Of a DNA stretch of 64,000 nucleotides, positions 44,507-52,238 are shown piece by piece. Numbering within the stretch: the stretch's first letter is position 1; each line of letters starts with the position of its first letter. Source of the stretch: an uncultured Eubacteriales bacterium (lineage in GTDB: Bacteria > Acidobacteriota > Aminicenantia > Aminicenantales > Aminicenantaceae); contig CAYSCW010000003.1 of assembly GCA_964429795.1 (NCBI GenBank), positions 67,061 through 131,060 on the forward strand. The letters run 5' to 3'. The translations under genes and the position numbers were made by a program. The notes under the pieces are model-generated. The model did no database searches and was not told the origin of the DNA. It saw only the letters and a program-made list of their open reading frames with translations.

Positions 44507-46072
44507 TCAAGATCTTTCTCCTTCTTCGATGATTCTCTCCCTGTATTCCTTGAGCCCTGGAATGGGAAGACGGATGAAGATGGCATTCTGCTCGTGAAAG
44601 CTGCAGAAGATCTCACAGGCCAGACATTCCGTGCACTTCCCCTTCTCTGCTTCTCCCGGAGAGACAGCAAGAACAGGCTTCCCATCTTCAAGTTTGAGAA
44701 TCTCTGCCTTGCAGGCTTCTATGCATCCCTTTGTCTTGCAGCGGGGGCATTTTTGATGGTCGATGGCAAGTTCTCCAGTCAGAGTCTTGAAAGAATAACA
44801 GTCTTCGGGGAGAGAAGGCTCCATCATCGGCTTCACGCGATGGGAGTGGCGACTGTTTTCTTCGATTAGCTCCTCAAGCCTCTGAGCACAGAATTCGGGT
44901 GAATCATTCCTTCCATACCCTTCCACTTTGGCTGGAATATCTTTGAGGTAAGTGGCCAGAATCTCAGCGGCTTCCTCTTCAAAGTTTCCTCCGAGGCGGA
45001 TCACCCCGGGGATAGCGAGATTTTCCTCCCGGAAAGCCTTGACCAAACCTCTTGCTGAATGGTACTGCTCCTGGCTGGCCACACCAGATCCAGAGGCAAA
45101 ATAACCCTTGATGTGGGGCTGAGAAAGGATGATTTTGGCTGCCCGGTAGACCTTGCTCGCAGCAGGATTTCCGCTTGTGTCACAGTAATTGGCCAGCTTA
45201 AATCCCTTACTCAATACAGCATCCATGGACATCATCGAACCGCCGCCCCCAGCACCGTTAAAACCGATGTAAGGTTCTTCCTCCGGAATCTCCTCTGCCA
45301 TCTGGAAGAAATAGAATGTGCCCCGGTAATCGCTTTCCTCAACCTGATAGGCGATCTTTTCCAGCTCGGTGGGAGGACGATCGAATTCTCTGGCCACTTC
45401 AATGCCCAGCTCAGGATGGCGGAATGCGGCATAGTCATCGATGGTCAGGTGGCAATCGGCCGCGTAAACAAGGCCTTCTTCAGTCACCACCAGAGGATTT
45501 ATCTCCGCTGAGCGGGCGTCGTACCTACGGGCGATCATGTAGAATTTTGTCAAAGTGTCTGAGAGTCGAAGAAGAAGCTTTCCAGATATTCCCGTTTTCC
45601 GTATGAGGTTGCGAACTTCATACTCCTTGAGCCCTCTCAGGATATCGATGGGAATCTGAGATATCTTCTCCGGATGGGACCGGGCGATCTCTTCCACTCC
45701 TGTGCCTCCTGCAGAACTGAAGATGAGCAGGGGGCACTTTTTGGAGTCATCGATGACAAGGCCTGCAAAGTACTCAGACTTGATGTTGAGTCTTTCTTCG
45801 ACCAAGACCTTTTCGATGATGAAATTCTTAACCTTCATTCCCAACATTTGTTTGGCAATCGCTTCGGCTTGTTGCGGGCTCTCGGCAAATTTTATCCCTC
45901 CCAAGCCGGCTCTCCCTGTCAGCCAGACCTGAATCTTTAGCACTACTGGTTTTTTCACCTGCTCGGCGATCTGACGCGCTTCAGAAGGCGTGGAAGCTAC
46001 ACCGCCATCTGGAATGCGGATTCCTCCTTCCTGGAGAAGCTTTTTGCTCAGGTATTCATAGAGACGGGCCAT
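44507..46072 (-). CDS. ADP-forming acyl-CoA ligase beta subunit (SucC-like) with a C-terminal ferredoxin-like domain
   Basis: LYEY.SK.LL, KIQV..TGR..LGGI, EINPL, GAGGGGSM and N.CDTSG motifs. C-terminus CPRCKTKGCIEAC...CTECLACEIFC. Confidence 0.88.
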   Translation of the reverse strand: MARLYEYLSKKLLQEGGIRIPDGGVASTPSEARQIAEQVKKPVVLKIQVWLTGRAGLGGIKFAESPQQAEAIAKQMLGMKVKNFIIEKVLVEERLNIKSEYFAGLVIDDSKKCPLLIFSSAGGTGVEEIARSHPEKISQIPIDILRGLKEYEVRNLIRKTGISGKLLLRLSDTLTKFYMIARRYDARSAEINPLVVTEEGLVYAADCHLTIDDYAAFRHPELGIEVAREFDRPPTELEKIAYQVEESDYRGTFYFFQMAEEIPEEEPYIGFNGAGGGGSMMSMDAVLSKGFKLANYCDTSGNPAASKVYRAAKIILSQPHIKGYFASGSGVASQEQYHSARGLVKAFREENLAIPGVIRLGGNFEEEAAEILATYLKDIPAKVEGYGRNDSPEFCAQRLEELIEENSRHSHRVKPMMEPSLPEDCYSFKTLTGELAIDHQKCPRCKTKGCIEACKAEILKLEDGKPVLAVSPGEAEKGKCTECLACEIFCSFHEQNAIFIRLPIPGLKEYRERIIEEGERS

Positions 46073-46237
46073 TCTGGTTTTCTCTCGAGTTAATATTATT
46101 CAGACGGTGATGAAATTTGTCAATGGAATAAGATAGTAATTCCATCTGACTCCTTTTGCGCTTTGACATAATTTTTGCTCCTATGATATTTAATACACAA
46201 GATATCAATGATGCACATCGGCAAGTAAGGAGGCCAC

Positions 46238-46405
46238 ATGAAATGCATCGCTTTTCTCTTAATCATTCACATCCTGCTTTTTATCTTCCCTGGGAATCAA
46301 GCCGGGATTCGGCCTAAAAACGATGCCGGGATCTGGTCTTCATCTCTGTGGCTTTCTTCATCTCATTACCTCCTGCAAGCTTTATTCCTGTCCTCTGCTA
46401 TATAA
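46238..46405 (+). CDS. Small 55-aa ORF with hydrophobic N-terminus (small protein or remnant)
   Basis: TAAGGAGG RBS then ATG; MKCIAFLLIIHILLFIFP...; below the ORF-track cutoff. Confidence 0.35.
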   Translation: MKCIAFLLIIHILLFIFPGNQAGIRPKNDAGIWSSSLWLSSSHYLLQALFLSSAI

Positions 46406-46673
46406 CCGAGTTCTTGTGCAGTGTCCAAGACATAGCTCATCATCGGCTCGCCTCATCGTTCCGAAGGATTTGGAAGGGAAGGATGTGTTCGAGCTCGCCT
46501 TCTCGAAAATCAGGGCGAACTCAACCAAGAGGATGAAAGTGTATTGATATGCCGGACATTCCGGCTTCCCAGGGAAGCAACTTAATGCTCTCCTGACCAT
46601 GAGTAGTCATGATCGCGCAGTCTGTAAATGACTTAAAAAACATCGATCTGGACGATCTTCATAACTTTCTCTT

Positions 46674-47360
46674 TTAGCCTTCATTTTTTTCTTCTGTAGG
46701 ATAGTATTTCTTTATAAATTTTTTCTGAACTTTGAAGGACCAATGCACATCCCTGATAAAATTTGCAGCATCCAGAAATTTACCCTCGGCTAGGAGATTT
46801 AACAATTGTTGGTGTTCTTTTATCGATGTTTCTTCCCATTCTTTTATGTATCCCTTCCGGCGTGGGAAGTCATAAAGCCTTTTTTTTAAAATATCCACTG
46901 TCCTCCTGAGCATCCTGTTTCCAGCCTGATTAATGTATACATCATGAAACATGAGATTCCTTTCATAGAAGGCATCAAAATTGTCCTTCTCTATAGCCCT
47001 CTTCATTCCTTCATTGAGCTTCTCCATTTTCTTAATGTCCGAGGCTTTCAGGCTTTCAGAAGCGGCTATGATCGCCGTACTCTCCAGAGCTCCTAATATC
47101 TGATAATAATCTTTAATATCCTGAAGAGTGAGCTTATTGACGATAACACCCCGCCGAGGCAGAATCGTTACAAAGCCTTCCCTCTCAAGCTGCAAAAGGG
47201 CATCTCTCAGGGGTGTCTTACTCACCCCTAATTTCTTACTGGTAGAATCCATATTTATCACTGAATCAGGTAGAATCTCTCCTATCTTCATCTGATGCCT
47301 CAGATATTCATAAACCTGGTCTTTCAAAGAAGAAAGATTGATTATGCCCGTTTTGGCCAT
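46674..47360 (-). CDS. GntR-family regulator with FCD domain
   Basis: SLKDQVYEYLR..LGVSKTPLRDAL.QLEREGFV..PRRG winged HTH; FH..Y and EH...L in the FCD domain. Confidence 0.92.
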   Translation of the reverse strand: MAKTGIINLSSLKDQVYEYLRHQMKIGEILPDSVINMDSTSKKLGVSKTPLRDALLQLEREGFVTILPRRGVIVNKLTLQDIKDYYQILGALESTAIIAASESLKASDIKKMEKLNEGMKRAIEKDNFDAFYERNLMFHDVYINQAGNRMLRRTVDILKKRLYDFPRRKGYIKEWEETSIKEHQQLLNLLAEGKFLDAANFIRDVHWSFKVQKKFIKKYYPTEEKNEG

Positions 47361-47419
47361 TTTACCTCCATCTCAACGAAATACTGTATATTATTCGTTT
47401 ATATGAAATTATACTCAAA

Positions 47420-47487
47420 GTCAATATTGCAATAACAGGTTTTTTTAATATTGACAATACATCTAATATCTGATATATTTAATATCA
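47420..47487. promoter_or_regulatory. Back-to-back sigma70-type promoters with a palindromic operator candidate
   Basis: GTCAATATT / AATATTGAC inverted repeat gives opposite -35 boxes. TTGACA-N17-TATATT on +. TGATAT-N5-ATATCA overlaps the -10. Confidence 0.6.
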
Positions 47488-47596
47488 AAGAGGAGAAAAA
47501 TTGGTCTGTTTTAGGCATTTATCCAGATAAGAAGCTACAAACAAATAAAAAAAGGGAAATGAGATTTAACAAGAATCCTGAGGTAAGTAATAAGAA

Positions 47597-48505
47597 ATGA
47601 AAAAGGGGATAATCTTCGATATTAAAAGATACGCCATCCATGATGGGCCTGGAATACGGACCACTGTTTTCTTCAAAGGCTGTCCTTTGCGGTGCTTGTG
47701 GTGTCATAATCCTGAAGGCCTAGTTTCTGAACCTGAGCTTACTTTTATAAAAACCAGATGTCTTCAAGATTGCAATGAATGTGTGGAGAGCTGCACAAGA
47801 GGAGCGCTTTCCCGCCCTGATCAAGATATATTTATGGACAGAGAAAAATGTGACCTTTGCGGCGATTGTGTTCAGGTGTGCCCTACTGAGGCTCTTGAAA
47901 TCATAGGGAGATGGATGAGTATAGAAGAAGTCATGAGAGAGATAGAAAAAGATATAATATTTTACGATGACTCAAAGGGAGGAGTGACATTTTCGGGAGG
48001 GGAACCTCTCTTGCAACCCGAGTTTCTAAATGCCCTACTCGAGGAATGCAAGAAAAAGGGCATTCACACCAGTTTAGATACGTCGGGATATGTCCCCATC
48101 GAAAACTTGGAAAAAATCAAAGATAAAGTTGACCTCTTTTTATACGATATTAAAATGATTGATGATGAAAAGCATAAAAAAACCACAGGAGTTTCGAATA
48201 AGTCAATTCTTGATAATTTAAGAAAACTTTCCGAGAAAGGAAACAATATTGTTGTTCGAATTCCAGTTATTCCCGGGATAAACAACACCGATGAAGACAT
48301 TTCCAAAATCGCTGAATTTATTACAACTCTCAAGGAAATAAAAGAGATCTGTCTTCTTCCTTACCATAATATAGCCAATCATAAATACGAGAGATTGAAT
48401 AGACCCTTTATGATGAAAAAGACGGAGCCTCTCTCCCAAAAAAATAAAGAGGAAATAAAGAAAAAATTTGAACACTTTGGATTTAAGGTAAGAATTGGAG
48501 AGTAG
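47597..48505 (+). CDS. Glycyl-radical enzyme activating enzyme (radical SAM with ferredoxin insert)
   Basis: HDGPGIRT, GCPLRCLWCHNPE, two extra Cys clusters, GGEPLLQ and LPYH motifs. Confidence 0.95.
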   Translation: MKKGIIFDIKRYAIHDGPGIRTTVFFKGCPLRCLWCHNPEGLVSEPELTFIKTRCLQDCNECVESCTRGALSRPDQDIFMDREKCDLCGDCVQVCPTEALEIIGRWMSIEEVMREIEKDIIFYDDSKGGVTFSGGEPLLQPEFLNALLEECKKKGIHTSLDTSGYVPIENLEKIKDKVDLFLYDIKMIDDEKHKKTTGVSNKSILDNLRKLSEKGNNIVVRIPVIPGINNTDEDISKIAEFITTLKEIKEICLLPYHNIANHKYERLNRPFMMKKTEPLSQKNKEEIKKKFEHFGFKVRIGE

Positions 48506-48509
48506 AGAG

Positions 48510-50873
48510 ATGAATGAAAGGATAAAAAAACTAAGGGAGCAAAGCATTAATACCAAACCTTGGATTACTCCAGAAAGAGCTAAACTAATAACTGAATTTT
48601 GCAAAAATGACATTGCTAATAGAGTATCATCCCCAGTGAAAAGAGCTTTGGCCCTAAAATATTTGATGGAACATAAAACAATCTGCATTAATGAAGGAGA
48701 GCTGATTGTTGGTGAGAGAGGCCCTTCTCCCAGGGCAACACCGACCTACCCAGAGATCACTATTCATAGCCTTGAAGACCTTGAAATCCTAAATTCAAGG
48801 AAAAAAACCTCATTTTCAGTAAATGACAAAACAAAAACGATATATAAAGAGGAGATTATTCCCTTCTGGAAGGGAAAATCAATCAGGGACAGAATTTTTA
48901 ATGAAATGTCCGATGAATGGAAAGATGCCTATGAAGCTGGAATCTTTACTGAGTTTATGGAGCAGAGAGCTCCTGGTCATACAGTCCTGGATAACAAAAT
49001 TTATAAGAAAGGATTTCTTGATTTTAAAGAAGATATAAAAAGAAGCATCCAAAATCTCGATTTTTTTAACGACCCTGAAGCTTACAAAAAACGGGAAGAA
49101 CTTAAGGCTATGGAAATCGCTGCAGATGCTTTGATTCGGTATGCAGAGCGACATGCGGAAAAAGCTAGAGAATTGGCTAAAAAAGAGAAAGATCCTCAAA
49201 GGAGAAAAGAGTTCGAGAAAATAGTCGAGATTTGTACTCATGTTCCGGCTCATGTTCCTCGCAATTTTTGGGAAACGTTGCAGTATTACTGGTTTGTTCA
49301 CCTAGGAGTGATAATAGAGCTTAATGGTTGGGATTCTTTTAATCCTGGAAGACTCGACCAGCATCTTTATCCATTCTACAAAAAAGGATTAGAAGATGGC
49401 TCTCTAACAAAAGAAAGCGCCAAAGAGCTTTTAGAGGCTTTCTGGATCAAATTTAACAATCAACCAGCTCCTCCAAAAGTAGGTGTGACTGCGGAAGAAA
49501 GCAGCACCTATACTGATTTTGCCTTGATAAACACCGGTGGAGTTAAGGCTGATGGGTCAGATGCGGTGAATGAGCTTTCCTACTTTATCCTTGATATAGT
49601 AGAGGAGATGAGAATTCTACAGCCGAGCTCAGCTGTTCAGATAAGCAAGAAGAGCCCGGACAGATTCTTAAAGAGGGCTCTTCATATAATCAAAACAGGA
49701 TTTGGTCAGCCATCAATATTCAATACAGACGTTATTGTTCAAGAGCTGGTGAGACAGGGAAAATCAATTGAAGATGCTAGGAACGGAGGTTCAAGTGGTT
49801 GCGTAGAGGTAGGAGCTTATGGAAAGGAAAACTATAATCTTACCGGATACTTTAATATAGTGAAGGTGTTGGAGATCACGCTGAATAATGGATTAGATCC
49901 AAGAACTGGCAAAAAAATTGGACTAGAAACAGGAGACCTTTCTCATTTCAGCTCTTTTGACGAACTCTTTGAAGCCCTCAAAAAACAGCTAAAATATTTT
50001 GTCGACATCAAAATTCAAGGGAACAATATCATAGAAAGACTATATGCTGAATATGTACCAGCACCTTTCCTCTCGCTTCTCATAGATGATTGTATCGAAA
50101 AGGGAAAAGATTATCATGATGGCGGAGCACGTTACAACACATCTTATATCCAGGGTGTAGGGTTGGGAACTGCGACAGATTCTTTAACTGCCGTTAAATA
50201 CAATGTGTACGATAAAAAAATTATCTCAATGAAGGAAATCCTGGAGGCTCTAAAGAACAATTTTACTGGCAGCGAAAATCTACGCCAAATGCTTTTGAAC
50301 AAAACCCCCAAATACGGAAATGATGAAGATTATGCTGATGAGGTCATGAAATCTATTTTTGAAGCTTATTATGAGGCTATAGACGGAAGACCCAACACAA
50401 AAGGCGGACGTTACTGTATAAATATGCTTCCTACCACAGTTCACATTTATTTTGGCCGAGTTGTAGGAGCTACTCCGGATGGGAGGAAAGCCTCTGAGCC
50501 TTTATCTGAAGGTGTTTCGCCTGTTCAGGGTGCTGACCGACATGGCCCCACGGCGGTTATAAAATCGGTGGCCAAAATGGACCACGCTCGCACAGGGGGA
50601 ACCCTTCTTAACCAAAAATTTTCCCCTAATCTTTTAGCCACGGAAGAGGGAATAGACAAGCTAGCCTATCTCATACGTTCCTTTTTTAAACTTGACGGCC
50701 ACCATATCCAGCTCAATGTGATCACTGCCGAGACTCTGCGAGATGCCCAAAAAAATCCAGAAAAATACAGAGATCTCATTGTACGAGTGGCAGGCTACAG
50801 CGACTATTTCTTGGATATCAACAAAGACCTTCAGGATGAAATCATTGCTAGGACAGAACATCAAGTATTTTGA
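48510..50873 (+). CDS. hypD: Glycyl radical enzyme, trans-4-hydroxy-L-proline dehydratase type
   Basis: FMEQRAPGHT, WDSFNPGR, ESSTYTDFA, GCVE, LTGY, LPTT and VRVAGYS; the HypD-type active-site residues appear retained. Confidence 0.85.
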   Translation: MNERIKKLREQSINTKPWITPERAKLITEFCKNDIANRVSSPVKRALALKYLMEHKTICINEGELIVGERGPSPRATPTYPEITIHSLEDLEILNSRKKTSFSVNDKTKTIYKEEIIPFWKGKSIRDRIFNEMSDEWKDAYEAGIFTEFMEQRAPGHTVLDNKIYKKGFLDFKEDIKRSIQNLDFFNDPEAYKKREELKAMEIAADALIRYAERHAEKARELAKKEKDPQRRKEFEKIVEICTHVPAHVPRNFWETLQYYWFVHLGVIIELNGWDSFNPGRLDQHLYPFYKKGLEDGSLTKESAKELLEAFWIKFNNQPAPPKVGVTAEESSTYTDFALINTGGVKADGSDAVNELSYFILDIVEEMRILQPSSAVQISKKSPDRFLKRALHIIKTGFGQPSIFNTDVIVQELVRQGKSIEDARNGGSSGCVEVGAYGKENYNLTGYFNIVKVLEITLNNGLDPRTGKKIGLETGDLSHFSSFDELFEALKKQLKYFVDIKIQGNNIIERLYAEYVPAPFLSLLIDDCIEKGKDYHDGGARYNTSYIQGVGLGTATDSLTAVKYNVYDKKIISMKEILEALKNNFTGSENLRQMLLNKTPKYGNDEDYADEVMKSIFEAYYEAIDGRPNTKGGRYCINMLPTTVHIYFGRVVGATPDGRKASEPLSEGVSPVQGADRHGPTAVIKSVAKMDHARTGGTLLNQKFSPNLLATEEGIDKLAYLIRSFFKLDGHHIQLNVITAETLRDAQKNPEKYRDLIVRVAGYSDYFLDINKDLQDEIIARTEHQVF

Positions 50874-51300
50874 GCAATCTCTCACTCCTACTGCAGAGGC
50901 CCTTCTCCTGAAAAAGTCAATCTCCTGCTCACAAGCAAGCCCATCAGGAAAACCGAGCATGGAAGCCACTTTCTGCCCATAGGCCTGCAAATATTAAACT
51001 CCTTACTTAGAGATTTGCCCCCGGAATGAACTCTTCTTCACCCAGGAAACAGCCAGAAGTAATTCCTAGGAAATCCAGAAGTTTTACTGAGCTTGATAAA
51101 TATTTCCGTTGGCAAGAAAATAAGAATCATATATAATAATTAAAGTCGATAGAGAGTTTGCCAGGGAGAGGAAAAAGAAGAATTAGGACAAAATCAACTA
51201 CCAATTCTCAAGATTCAGGAATTCCTCTATATTTAAGGGCGTGATATAGGTTAATGTCTTTATCTCTGAAATAGCTGAGAAAGATGTTCATCTTGATGAA

Positions 51301-51636
51301 GTGTCAATAAAAATGGCCATGTTTTCCAAAAAGTGGGAAGTCTGTCTTTATTCTGATTATCCTAAATACAGGGAACTCTGCAAAAATTTCAGGACATTCT
51401 GGCGAGCCACTCGATTTATGAGAAAGCACCTGGGCAAGGATGAAGAATTCTATTGTGCCACTATCTGGCGGGAGAACACCTCTTCCTTCTATACTTTTTA
51501 CTGGAATGGAAAAAGAATCATCCATTGGAAATACCGGAAAAAACCCTGGGTTTTCTCCCGCAGACAGGCCCGAAGATTGAGGATTAACAGGCACGGACAG
51601 GTTATCTTCACCCCTTATGTTGATCGGGTCGTCTGA
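51301..51636 (+). CDS. Small basic, aromatic-rich hypothetical protein
   Basis: 111-aa ORF with protein-like composition (W/Y/F/R/K-rich); no recognised family. Confidence 0.5.
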   Translation: MSIKMAMFSKKWEVCLYSDYPKYRELCKNFRTFWRATRFMRKHLGKDEEFYCATIWRENTSSFYTFYWNGKRIIHWKYRKKPWVFSRRQARRLRINRHGQVIFTPYVDRVV

Positions 51637-51851
51637 CCGCAATTTCGCTTGAAACAGGGATTGCTGAGTATAAAAAAAATGCTGGCTGTGAGAATCTCTA
51701 GCGATAAAGGAGGACTGACAGTGGAGGAGCCCTGCCCAGCCAGCTCAGCGGGACCTTATATTTAGTCGGGCATGAAGCGACTATATGAATAAAGGGGGAG
51801 GAAATAATTCCCGTTCCCCTGTTTTGTCGCTACTTCTCGATCCGCCCCTCC

Positions 51852-52238
51852 TTATTCGAACCACACTTTTAGAGTCACTCCTTTCTCACAGATCTCCATC
51901 ACCGACATCGGACCCAGCTTCTTAAGATCCCGAAAAAGATCCATAAGATTCACATCACAATCATCGCGTTTTATCCTCATATGTTTGTCTTCAGTACACT
52001 TTAAAAAATATTCAACCAAGGCAACAGGCAGTGTCATCCTGACTTTGTCTTTTTTGTTTCGATTGTCGGTGATAAGAAGCTTAAACCACATCACCTCTCT
52101 TCCCGATTTATAGGCAGGATTCTTTTTGACTGCCTTCTTGATGATTTGAATATCATCACTGCTTTCTGCGACCAATGCTGTAGTCAGGAGCAGACTCAAA
52201 AGGATGATGACCACAATTAAAATCGCCGCTTTTTTCAC
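51852..52238 (-). CDS. Exported hypothetical protein of the ECF operon
   Basis: Signal peptide; FKLLITD..KVRMTLPVALV motif. Confidence 0.8.
   Translation of the reverse strand: MKKAAILIVVIILLSLLLTTALVAESSDDIQIIKKAVKKNPAYKSGREVMWFKLLITDNRNKKDKVRMTLPVALVEYFLKCTEDKHMRIKRDDCDVNLMDLFRDLKKLGPMSVMEICEKGVTLKVWFE

Follow-up and report, generated by a model that had tools for sequence, protein, structure and literature searches.

The locus described here raises the question whether a hydroxyproline dehydratase and a tricarboxylate operon, which lie 1.5 kb apart in the genome of an uncultured sediment bacterium of the Aminicenantes type, form one catabolic system, and where the P5C made by such an enzyme would go. 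An earlier note on this DNA had proposed that P5C passes via glutamate and 2-oxoglutarate into the neighbouring operon. The analysis of the window (the whole stretch of 64,000 nucleotides), of this genome and of its relatives leads us to a different reading, which we hold to be probable: a self-contained, repressor-controlled entry module for hydroxyproline, fed by peptides and delivering P5C to glutamate, beside an operon that is separate and was brought close by deletions.

Identity of the dehydratase and its activase

The open reading frames and the Pfam and NCBIfam matches place three genes between 46674 and 50873 of the window:

46674..47360, minus strand: GntR-family (FadR/FCD type) regulator, candidate cognate repressor of the hypD module (Pfam GntR and FCD)
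47597..48505, plus strand: radical-SAM glycyl-radical enzyme activase of the HypD-AE type (Radical_SAM and ferredoxin-type domains)
48510..50873, plus strand: trans-4-hydroxy-L-proline dehydratase HypD, 787 aa (NF043068 match, 6VXC alignment)

The start of HypD is likelier to be the ATG at 48510 than the TTG at 48495, with which the listed open reading frame (48495-50873) begins. The protein scores 1351.4 bits on NCBIfam NF043068 (trans-4-hydroxy-L-proline dehydratase, cut-off 1100) and thus belongs to this family, the second-best family being TIGR01774 with 737 bits; the PFL-like barrel (PF02901, 791 bits) and the glycyl radical domain (PF01228, 129 bits) are both present. In the alignment with PDB 6VXC (1103 bits), the Cys loop C436-V437-E438 matches C434-V-E436, the C-X-E of GRE eliminases, and the Gly loop RVAGYS, of the RVxG type, contains G767. 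The twelve catalytic or substrate-binding positions compared with C. difficile HypD in this alignment, the translation and the published mutagenesis paper (PMC7077986) are all conserved (R158, H162, D280, K328, S336, D341, F342, C436-V-E438, Y452, T647, G767), and among them H162, D280, D341, S336, F342, Y452 and T647 correspond to His160, Asp278, Asp339, Ser334, Phe340, Tyr450 and Thr645 as defined by mutagenesis. The activase scores slightly below the cut-off of the HypD-AE equivalog NF043069 (412.9 bits, cut-off 425) and well above that of TIGR02494 (376.8 bits, cut-off 174); its CX3CX2C motif occupies residues 29-36, and additional ferredoxin-type Cys clusters lie at 55-62 and 85-91.

The earlier note had recognized an activase and a glycyl radical enzyme with HypD active-site motifs, and both identifications hold. 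Enzyme family and activase type are those of the HypD/HypD-AE/P5C reductase cluster of C. difficile (Levin 2017; Backman 2020; PMC7077986; PDB 6VXC, 6VXE), with which the RVAGYS Gly loop, the C-V-E Cys loop and all HypD-specific residues are common. Judged by its sequence, the enzyme is a typical member of the known family of oxygen-free hydroxyproline dehydratases. The activase would install a glycyl radical on HypD, which would in turn dehydrate trans-4-hydroxy-L-proline to P5C, as family membership and residue conservation suggest.

Distribution in the order and fate of P5C

HypD is core to the order Aminicenantales, being found above the NF043068 cut-off in 37 of 41 genomes; we found no report on HypD or hydroxyproline in Aminicenantes in the literature searched. 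The conserved neighbours at the HypD loci of 80 other species are the activase (68 loci), a prolidase-type Xaa-Pro peptidase that comes after hypD (29), a GntR regulator (10-11) and a member of the proline-racemase family (8). The gene order GntR-activase-HypD-prolidase, recovered in relatives, is the ancestral arrangement of Aminicenantales as a whole. The present locus differs from these operons of sediment bacteria in that the regulator is inverted and the orthologue of the Xaa-Pro peptidase (61.5% identical) is unlinked (C5:25098-26474). Given these peptidases, the source of hydroxyproline would probably be peptides.

The earlier note had observed that no P5C reductase gene adjoins hypD. 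This is correct and extends further, since neither profile searches (TIGR00112, PF14748) nor tblastn with the ProC of a relative found one elsewhere in this genome. The assembly is 92% complete and lacks EF-Tu itself, which makes absences from it alone weak, and the absence of proC therefore rests on closed relatives, three of which, each a single contig, gave no match to TIGR00112 or to the P5CR dimer domain PF14748. Across the order, proC was found above cut-off in 1 of 41 genomes. PrdA-type proline reductase (PF09338) gave no match in this genome, nor in the control genomes. In contrast to the C. difficile cluster, proC is thus neither adjacent nor in the genome and no proline reductase was found, so the module probably does not feed Stickland reduction and stands apart from the clostridial hypD-proC clusters.

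Because P5C reductase and proline reductase appear to be lacking in this genome and its order, P5C would most likely be oxidised to glutamate. The search for a P5C dehydrogenase elsewhere, which the earlier note had suggested, was successful: a gene on contig C47 (G000:C47:9086-10666) scores 778 bits on TIGR01236 (cut-off 613.6), unlinked to hypD, and proline dehydrogenase and glutamate dehydrogenase-family genes are also encoded elsewhere in the genome. Since proC is lacking and these genes are present, the conversion of hydroxyproline via P5C to glutamate is the likely route on the basis of gene content, and one of several enzymes of the glutamate dehydrogenase family would then deaminate the glutamate. 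This part of the earlier proposal is plausible; the further passage into the neighbouring operon is unsupported, as set out below. The P5C dehydrogenase gene carries no operator and is surrounded by unrelated genes (RarA, BamB-like, HDIG, PanB, PanC) and by an L-piperidine-6-carboxylate dehydrogenase gene. A dehydrogenase of the TIGR01236 type occurs in 19 of 41 relatives, that is in only about half of those bearing HypD, and for this reason cannot be the universal partner of HypD.

Neither the enzyme nor the idea that P5C goes to glutamate is new, and the module itself adds little to them: most HypD genomes have no adjacent proC, and a fate of P5C as glutamate has been considered for them (Huang et al., 2018, PMC6219649). 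Compared with those proC-less loci, the P5C dehydrogenase is unlinked here and the whole lineage lacks proC, which sharpens the question raised in 2018 but does not change it. What stands out is the near-universal presence of a hydroxyproline dehydratase, with a sharply defined putative operator, in an abundant uncultured order from sediments that is without the proline-forming reductase.

Two other readings of the enzyme itself have to be considered. That its substrate is something other than trans-4-hydroxy-L-proline might be argued from the fact that no member from this phylum has ever been assayed and from divergent paralogues (45% identity) in three relatives. However, the score far over the equivalog cut-off, the conservation of all residues that mutagenesis showed to be required for hydroxyproline binding and catalysis, and the prolidase-type peptidase and proline-racemase family genes beside hypD in relatives make this extremely improbable. 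A supply of proline in the absence of ProC, by a non-canonical reductase that turns P5C into proline, is less remote, although we still regard it as unlikely. Members of the ornithine cyclodeaminase/mu-crystallin (OCD) family would be candidates, as this family includes imine reductases; its genes were present in 5 of 5 genomes checked, and the lineage lacks proC although HypD is nearly universal in it. On the other hand, no OCD-family gene recurs beside hypD, the OCD-family protein of this genome falls below its equivalog cut-off, and proline dehydrogenase together with P5C dehydrogenase indicates a flux away from proline.

The GntR/FCD regulator and its putative operator

The regulator combines an N-terminal GntR winged helix (PF00392, 43.6 bits) with a C-terminal FCD domain (PF07729, 66.3 bits). 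At least 17 genomes of the order have an orthologue (53-67% identical) immediately upstream of activase-HypD and in the same direction. The gene here is inverted instead; its divergence from activase-hypD had been noted earlier. Two further features lie between the divergent genes:

47451..47479, plus strand: promoter-like site TTGACA-17-TATATT with TG extension, facing activase-hypD (consensus match only)
47464..47488, no strand assigned: putative 25-bp operator TAATATCTGATATATTTAATATCAA, covering the -10 box of the hypD promoter (weight matrix)

The promoter-like site is the best sigma-70-type match in 45900-52000 (11/12). The weight matrix was built from the sites of 16 relatives, with the window itself excluded, and it ranks the site over the -10 box, with 28.6 bits, as the top match in 3.15 Mb. 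With up to 3 mismatches allowed, the pattern TRATATSTGATATWTYASATATCAR has matches in 22 of 41 genomes, almost invariably a single one located at the HypD module, compared with 1 match for the reversed control, and it also occurs at 19 of 80 public HypD loci. One new element of this work is a conserved 25-bp putative operator at the hypD promoter, of which genomes throughout the order are predicted to have about one each. Most likely it is bound by the GntR/FCD protein, which thereby blocks transcription of activase-hypD; the genes would stay off until an effector releases the repressor. By analogy with the HypR repressors of aerobic hydroxyproline pathways, the effector is likely to be hydroxyproline or a close metabolite.

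GntR/FadR-type HypR repressors control hydroxyproline catabolism in S. meliloti, in Proteobacteria and in S. coelicolor (PMC5343134, PMC6608401). The present regulator is likened to them by architecture: it is a winged-helix GntR protein with an FCD domain, its putative site covers the -10 box of the promoter, and in relatives of this genome it heads its own operon, which would mean autoregulation. The differences are that the target here is an anaerobic radical enzyme, whereas HypR acts on the epimerase/oxidase route, and that the operator with its TGATAT half-sites departs from the published S. coelicolor motif CTNTGC(A/C)ATGTCAC. A GntR/FCD regulator with its own putative operator, as well as the host, also sets the locus apart from the C. 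difficile cluster.

In other bacteria, HypR regulons extend to prolyl peptidases and TonB-type transporters (PMC5343134, PMC6608401). A wider regulon in this genome was sought by a genome-wide scan with the weight matrix and rejected: the other matches are weak (17-22 bits, where chance alone would give about 1.5 positions of at least 17 bits per genome), and the strict pattern gives about one site per genome over 41 genomes. Among the top matches listed by the scan, none lies near P5C dehydrogenase, proline dehydrogenase or Xaa-Pro peptidase genes. The weak operator-like matches fall at two BNR/sortilin-like paralogues, a GH127 locus and an ABC exporter; the region around the one on C5 has no counterpart in the sister species G001, and the BNR proteins gave only weak propeller matches in a structure search by sequence.

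The neighbouring operon, deletions and origin of the module

The tricarboxylate operon is not part of the hydroxyproline system, and its neighbourhood to hypD is chance. The two loci are near each other only in this genus, and in G001 they are separated by 16.9 kb of peptidase, glycosidase and outer-membrane genes, two parts of which, 11.2 kb and 4.15 kb long, are missing from the present genome. Relative to G001, synteny is interrupted at 47440 and again at 46316/46333, the latter within a gene remnant:

46163..46190, plus strand: promoter-like site TTGACA-16-GATATT directed towards the stub and divergent from the operon promoter (46123-46095, minus strand)
46184..46208, no strand assigned: weak look-alike of the operator with 5 mismatches to the pattern, conserved in its outer half-sites and degenerate at the centre
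46238..46405, plus strand: stub (55 codons) left by the deletion of a secreted alpha-galactosidase-like/NPCBM gene; the deletion junction falls near 46316-46333

The promoter-like site before the stub is also present in G001, where it faces a complete gene; the 845-aa product has Melibiase and NPCBM domains and matches alpha-galactosidase structures, and the first ~30 residues of the stub match its N-terminus. At the stub junction G001 carries the 4.15 kb extra, flanked by the short repeat AAAAACGAT..CCGG; its contigs C26 and C54 share an overlap of 55 nt, and a single continuous 1021-aa ORF results when they are joined. Deletions of ~11.2 kb and ~4.15 kb in this genus or genome would thus have removed the separating genes and made the operon a neighbour of the module. 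The earlier note had offered chance adjacency after horizontal transfer as its alternative; chance stands, in view of the non-conserved neighbourhood, while the mechanism is deletion, as the synteny breaks and the stub indicate.

The reading favoured by the earlier note, one co-regulated non-Stickland hydroxyproline fermentation in which P5C passes via glutamate and 2-oxoglutarate into the adjacent dehydrogenase-aconitase-CoA ligase-lyase operon, would draw on the distance of 1.5 kb, on the look-alike within the 165 nt that separate the stub from the CoA-ligase gene, and on predictions that some proteobacterial HypR regulons include TCA-type enzymes (PMC5343134). The note itself had named co-conservation as a point on which the coupling should be judged, and co-conservation is missing: none of the 80 other species' loci has an operon gene within 10 kb of HypD, HypD occurs alike in genomes of the order with a match to the operon's citryl-CoA lyase (28 of 29) and without one (11 of 12), and in two closed genomes the HypD locus and the operon are separated by 0.2 and 1.0 Mb. 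The look-alike, with 17.8 bits the third-best locus in the genome where about 1.5 positions of at least 17 bits are expected by chance, is identical in G001, but it overlaps the -10 box of a promoter that faces the other way and belonged to the deleted glycosidase gene, and the 19 operons of other relatives have no match of even 6 bits in the available 131-500 nt upstream of the CoA-ligase gene. As a shared motif linking both loci it was rejected, since it belongs to the promoter of the deleted alpha-galactosidase-like gene; lying ~60 nt upstream of the operon's -35 box, it may have some influence on the operon in this genus. The two loci are, moreover, opposite compositional outliers, and taken together these observations make the coupling very unlikely. 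This is a clean negative: the attractive link to the operon is a by-product of two deletions, which spares follow-up on the operon.

The earlier remark that the module is more AT-rich than its flanks was confirmed, and the contrast is visible because module and left operon deviate in opposite directions: the module has a GC content of 0.388 (genome mean 0.454; lowest 2.4% of 4.2-kb windows) and the left operon one of 0.505 (top 1-2%). GC3 is 0.359 for HypD (lowest 3.2% of 1321 long ORFs) and 0.380 for the activase, against a genome mean of 0.51, which is at odds with simple vertical descent. Acquisition of the module in this genus, or replacement of a resident copy, by transfer from a lower-GC relative is therefore quite possible, if somewhat short of an even chance. 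Expression bias does not account for the low GC3, as GroEL, the codon-usage reference in place of the missing EF-Tu, has 0.564; HypD GC follows its flanks in 40 other genomes (mean difference +0.01), and the inverted GntR gene departs from the order-wide gene order. Against transfer, HypD identity declines with kinship roughly as vertical descent predicts (94% within the genus, 72-80% within the family and 68-77% to other families), the right flank is likewise slightly under the mean GC, and even the best match from outside reaches just 80% identity, so that no donor has been sampled. The compositional signal fits a lateral origin, while HypD itself is not new to the lineage.

Dehydratase and operator are simple handles for asking what Aminicenantales feed on. 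Tentatively, and with more doubt than confidence, we suggest that hydroxyproline use in this order, with HypD as core and no P5C reductase, may be obligately oxidative to glutamate under a HypR-like GntR regulator and the 25-bp operator, the feedstock being hydroxyproline-rich glycoprotein of the plant or algal cell-wall type in sediments. The island in G001 encodes an alpha-galactosidase-like/NPCBM protein, M61 and DPP-IV-type peptidases, a sulfatase, a TonB-type barrel and a BNR propeller, and together with the weak operator-like sites that lie close to BNR paralogues and to GH127 beta-L-arabinofuranosidase genes it gives a hint of such a feedstock.

The HypD module and its putative operator

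The activase and glycyl radical enzyme (GRE) that the earlier note had read as HypD-type are predicted to form a genuine HypD module of an ordinary kind, in a lineage that lacks proC. The window is C3:67061-131060 of genome G000, whose assembly comprises 3.15 Mb in 86 contigs and is 92% complete.

46674-47360, minus strand: GntR regulator with FCD domain (from domain content)
47597-48505, plus strand: radical-SAM glycyl-radical activase (ORF)
48495-50873, plus strand: glycyl radical enzyme, HypD (ORF; likelier start ATG 48510)

The GRE scored 1351 bits on the NCBIfam trans-4-hydroxy-L-proline dehydratase equivalog (cut-off 1100; next family 737) and 1103 bits with the C. difficile HypD of known structure (PDB 6VXC), and its nearest relatives are found in Candidatus Aminicenantes MAGs. 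The residues needed in HypD have been defined by structure and mutagenesis (PMC7077986); carried over via the 6VXC alignment and then checked in the GRE translation, all mapped residues were kept (R158, H162, D280, K328, S336, D341, F342, C436-V-E438, Y452, T647 and G767 in RVAGYS), which bears out the HypD assignment. The activase possesses a CX3CX2C motif and two more cysteine clusters and lies above the cut-off of the general GRE-activase model and just below that of the HypD-activase equivalog (412.9 vs. 425).

A second GRE, about 45% identical to HypD (810-843 bits, below the HypD cut-off), occurs in three relatives (G008:C122, G017:C29, G020:C142), and the HypD of another, G033, contains two in-frame stops. 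A 112-aa open frame elsewhere in the own genome (G000:C37:3340-3570, locus L002) matches the glycyl-radical C-terminal domain (109 bits) and is possibly a GrcA-type spare radical protein. The 111-aa basic ORF 3' of hypD (51301-51636, plus strand) has no Pfam match; its region is kept in the sister genome.

In relatives, a 25-bp element (consensus TRATATSTGATATWTYASATATCAR) lies 5' of GntR-activase-HypD. A weight matrix from which the window sequence was left out had its best genome-wide match at 47464-47488 (28.6 bits). This match overlaps the -10 box of the region's best promoter-like site (TTGACA-17-TATATT, 47451-47479), which faces the activase. With up to three mismatches allowed, 22 of the 41 genomes contained the pattern, nearly always in a single copy at the HypD module (reversed control, 1 match), and so did 19 of 80 public HypD loci. 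In at least 17 genomes a GntR orthologue stands directly 5' of activase-HypD and points the same way. The conserved element fits a dedicated repressor, whose binding and effector are inferred. The architecture of this candidate repressor is analogous to that of the HypR proteins, GntR/FadR-type repressors controlling aerobic hydroxyproline (Hyp) catabolism (PMC5343134, PMC6608401).

Weak operator-like sites were observed where an 805-aa BNR/sortilin-like gene begins (G000:C5:48950, L173; 21.8 bits), 256 nt upstream of its 924-aa paralogue (C13:19508, L175; 17.1 bits), and in the space separating a GH127 beta-L-arabinofuranosidase-family gene from a DUF362 gene (C37:15913, L174; 17.2 bits). They hint at a regulon linked to glycoproteins, but their scores are near chance level.

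Fate of P5C

The P5C reductase reported missing beside hypD was not found elsewhere in the own genome, whether by a TIGR00112 profile search or with the ProC of a relative as tblastn query. PF14748, the dimer domain of P5CR, had no match in this genome, the sister or three single-contig relatives, and only 1 of the 41 genomes of the order has a ProC above cut-off. EF-Tu (TIGR00485) was likewise not found in the assembly, so that absences from one genome are weak evidence. The PrdA/GrdE family gave no match, but neither did it in control genomes, which leaves this a weak negative.

The search for a P5C dehydrogenase elsewhere led to an unlinked contig (C47:9086-10666; TIGR01236, 778 bits vs. 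a cut-off of 613.6). A monofunctional proline dehydrogenase is encoded on C57, and PF00208, the Glu/Leu/Phe/Val dehydrogenase family that includes glutamate dehydrogenase, has four matches above cut-off. Since these genes are present and ProC matches absent, Hyp to P5C to glutamate is the best-supported route. The oxidative half of the proposed fermentation is therefore plausible, and is not new, having been proposed in the literature; its onward coupling to the neighbouring tricarboxylate operon did not hold. As a caveat, the TIGR01236-type dehydrogenase occurs in only 19 of 41 relatives, vs. HypD in 37; other forms occur, such as a PutA-like fusion in G025. The own genome also encodes a proline-racemase-family protein and OCD-family proteins. 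On C47 the P5C dehydrogenase adjoins an L-piperidine-6-carboxylate dehydrogenase (G000:C47:9086-12174, L114; 803 bits vs. 730); their proximity suggests a catabolic pair shared between imino acids and lysine.

Adjacency to the tricarboxylate operon

The HypD loci of 80 other species, each taken with flanks of at most 10 kb per side, contained none of the nine operon genes. Among recurrent neighbours the activase stood in 68 loci, a prolidase-type Xaa-Pro peptidase immediately after hypD in 29, GntR in 10-11 and a proline-racemase-family gene in 8. The operon's citryl-CoA lyase occurs in 29 of the 41 order genomes; 28 of these also have HypD, as do 11 of the 12 lacking a lyase match. In the closed genomes G025 and G039 the two loci lie 0.2 and 1.0 Mb apart. 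The operon was thus rejected as part of the Hyp module, the loci not being co-conserved, an outcome that the earlier note had named among those speaking against its reading.

Its alternative, chance adjacency, fared better in comparison with the sister species G001.

46238-46405, plus strand: stub of an alpha-galactosidase-like/NPCBM gene (55 codons; first ~30 match an 845-aa protein)
G001 C26:34744-45124 + C54:1-6075 (L116, L207, L123): island between hypD and operon

The stub begins signal-peptide-like. At this point G001 has an extra 4.15 kb, bounded by a short direct repeat and holding the intact 845-aa gene and an M61 peptidase; by sequence comparison the gap is demonstrably a deletion in this genome, which also took the M61 peptidase. 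A second synteny break lies at 47440, just 5' of the hypD promoter. Because C26 and C54 join through a 55-nt overlap, yielding a single uninterrupted 1021-aa TonB-type outer-membrane barrel ORF, the GntR and CoA-ligase starts of G001 can be placed 11.5 and 16.9 kb from the activase start. Between lie genes for a BNR propeller, a DPP-IV-type S9 peptidase, a sulfatase-TPR protein and the barrel protein; the island also holds the GntR, the M61 peptidase (two ORFs) and the alpha-galactosidase-like/NPCBM gene. The own genome is without orthologues of the glycosidase, the first part of the M61 peptidase, the DPP-IV-type peptidase and the BNR protein. Since 16.9 kb of other genes, part of them deleted here, separate the loci in G001, the adjacency is, on this comparison, a genus-level accident.

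An operator look-alike between the regulator and the CoA-ligase gene (46184-46208; 17.8 bits) was the third-best locus of the genome scan. About 1.5 positions of at least 17 bits are expected per genome by chance, so that its place beside the regulator is probably no accident. It overlaps a plus-strand promoter-like site (46163-46190) facing the 55-codon ORF, which has a strong ribosome-binding site; the G001 counterpart of this promoter heads the 845-aa gene, whose product is secreted. Upstream of the CoA-ligase gene in 19 other relatives (131-500 nt available), no match reached 6 bits. It is unlikely to be a shared motif linking operon and hypD.

Composition and origin

The AT-richness noted earlier is real: module GC is 0.388, within the lowest 2.4% of 4.2-kb windows (genome mean 0.454), and that of the operon to its left 0.505 (top 1-2%). 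HypD GC3 (0.359) is in the lowest 3.2% among 1321 long ORFs, for which expression-linked codon bias is an unlikely cause because GroEL GC3 is 0.564. HypD GC tracks flanking GC in 40 other genomes (mean difference +0.01), and the low GC is therefore peculiar to this genus. Being nearly universal in the order, HypD is old in the lineage; identity to the window copy declines with relatedness, from 94% in the genus to 72-80% in the family and 68-77% in other families. Judging by the low GC3 and the inversion of the regulator, the copy in this genus may be a replacement that came from a lower-GC relative.
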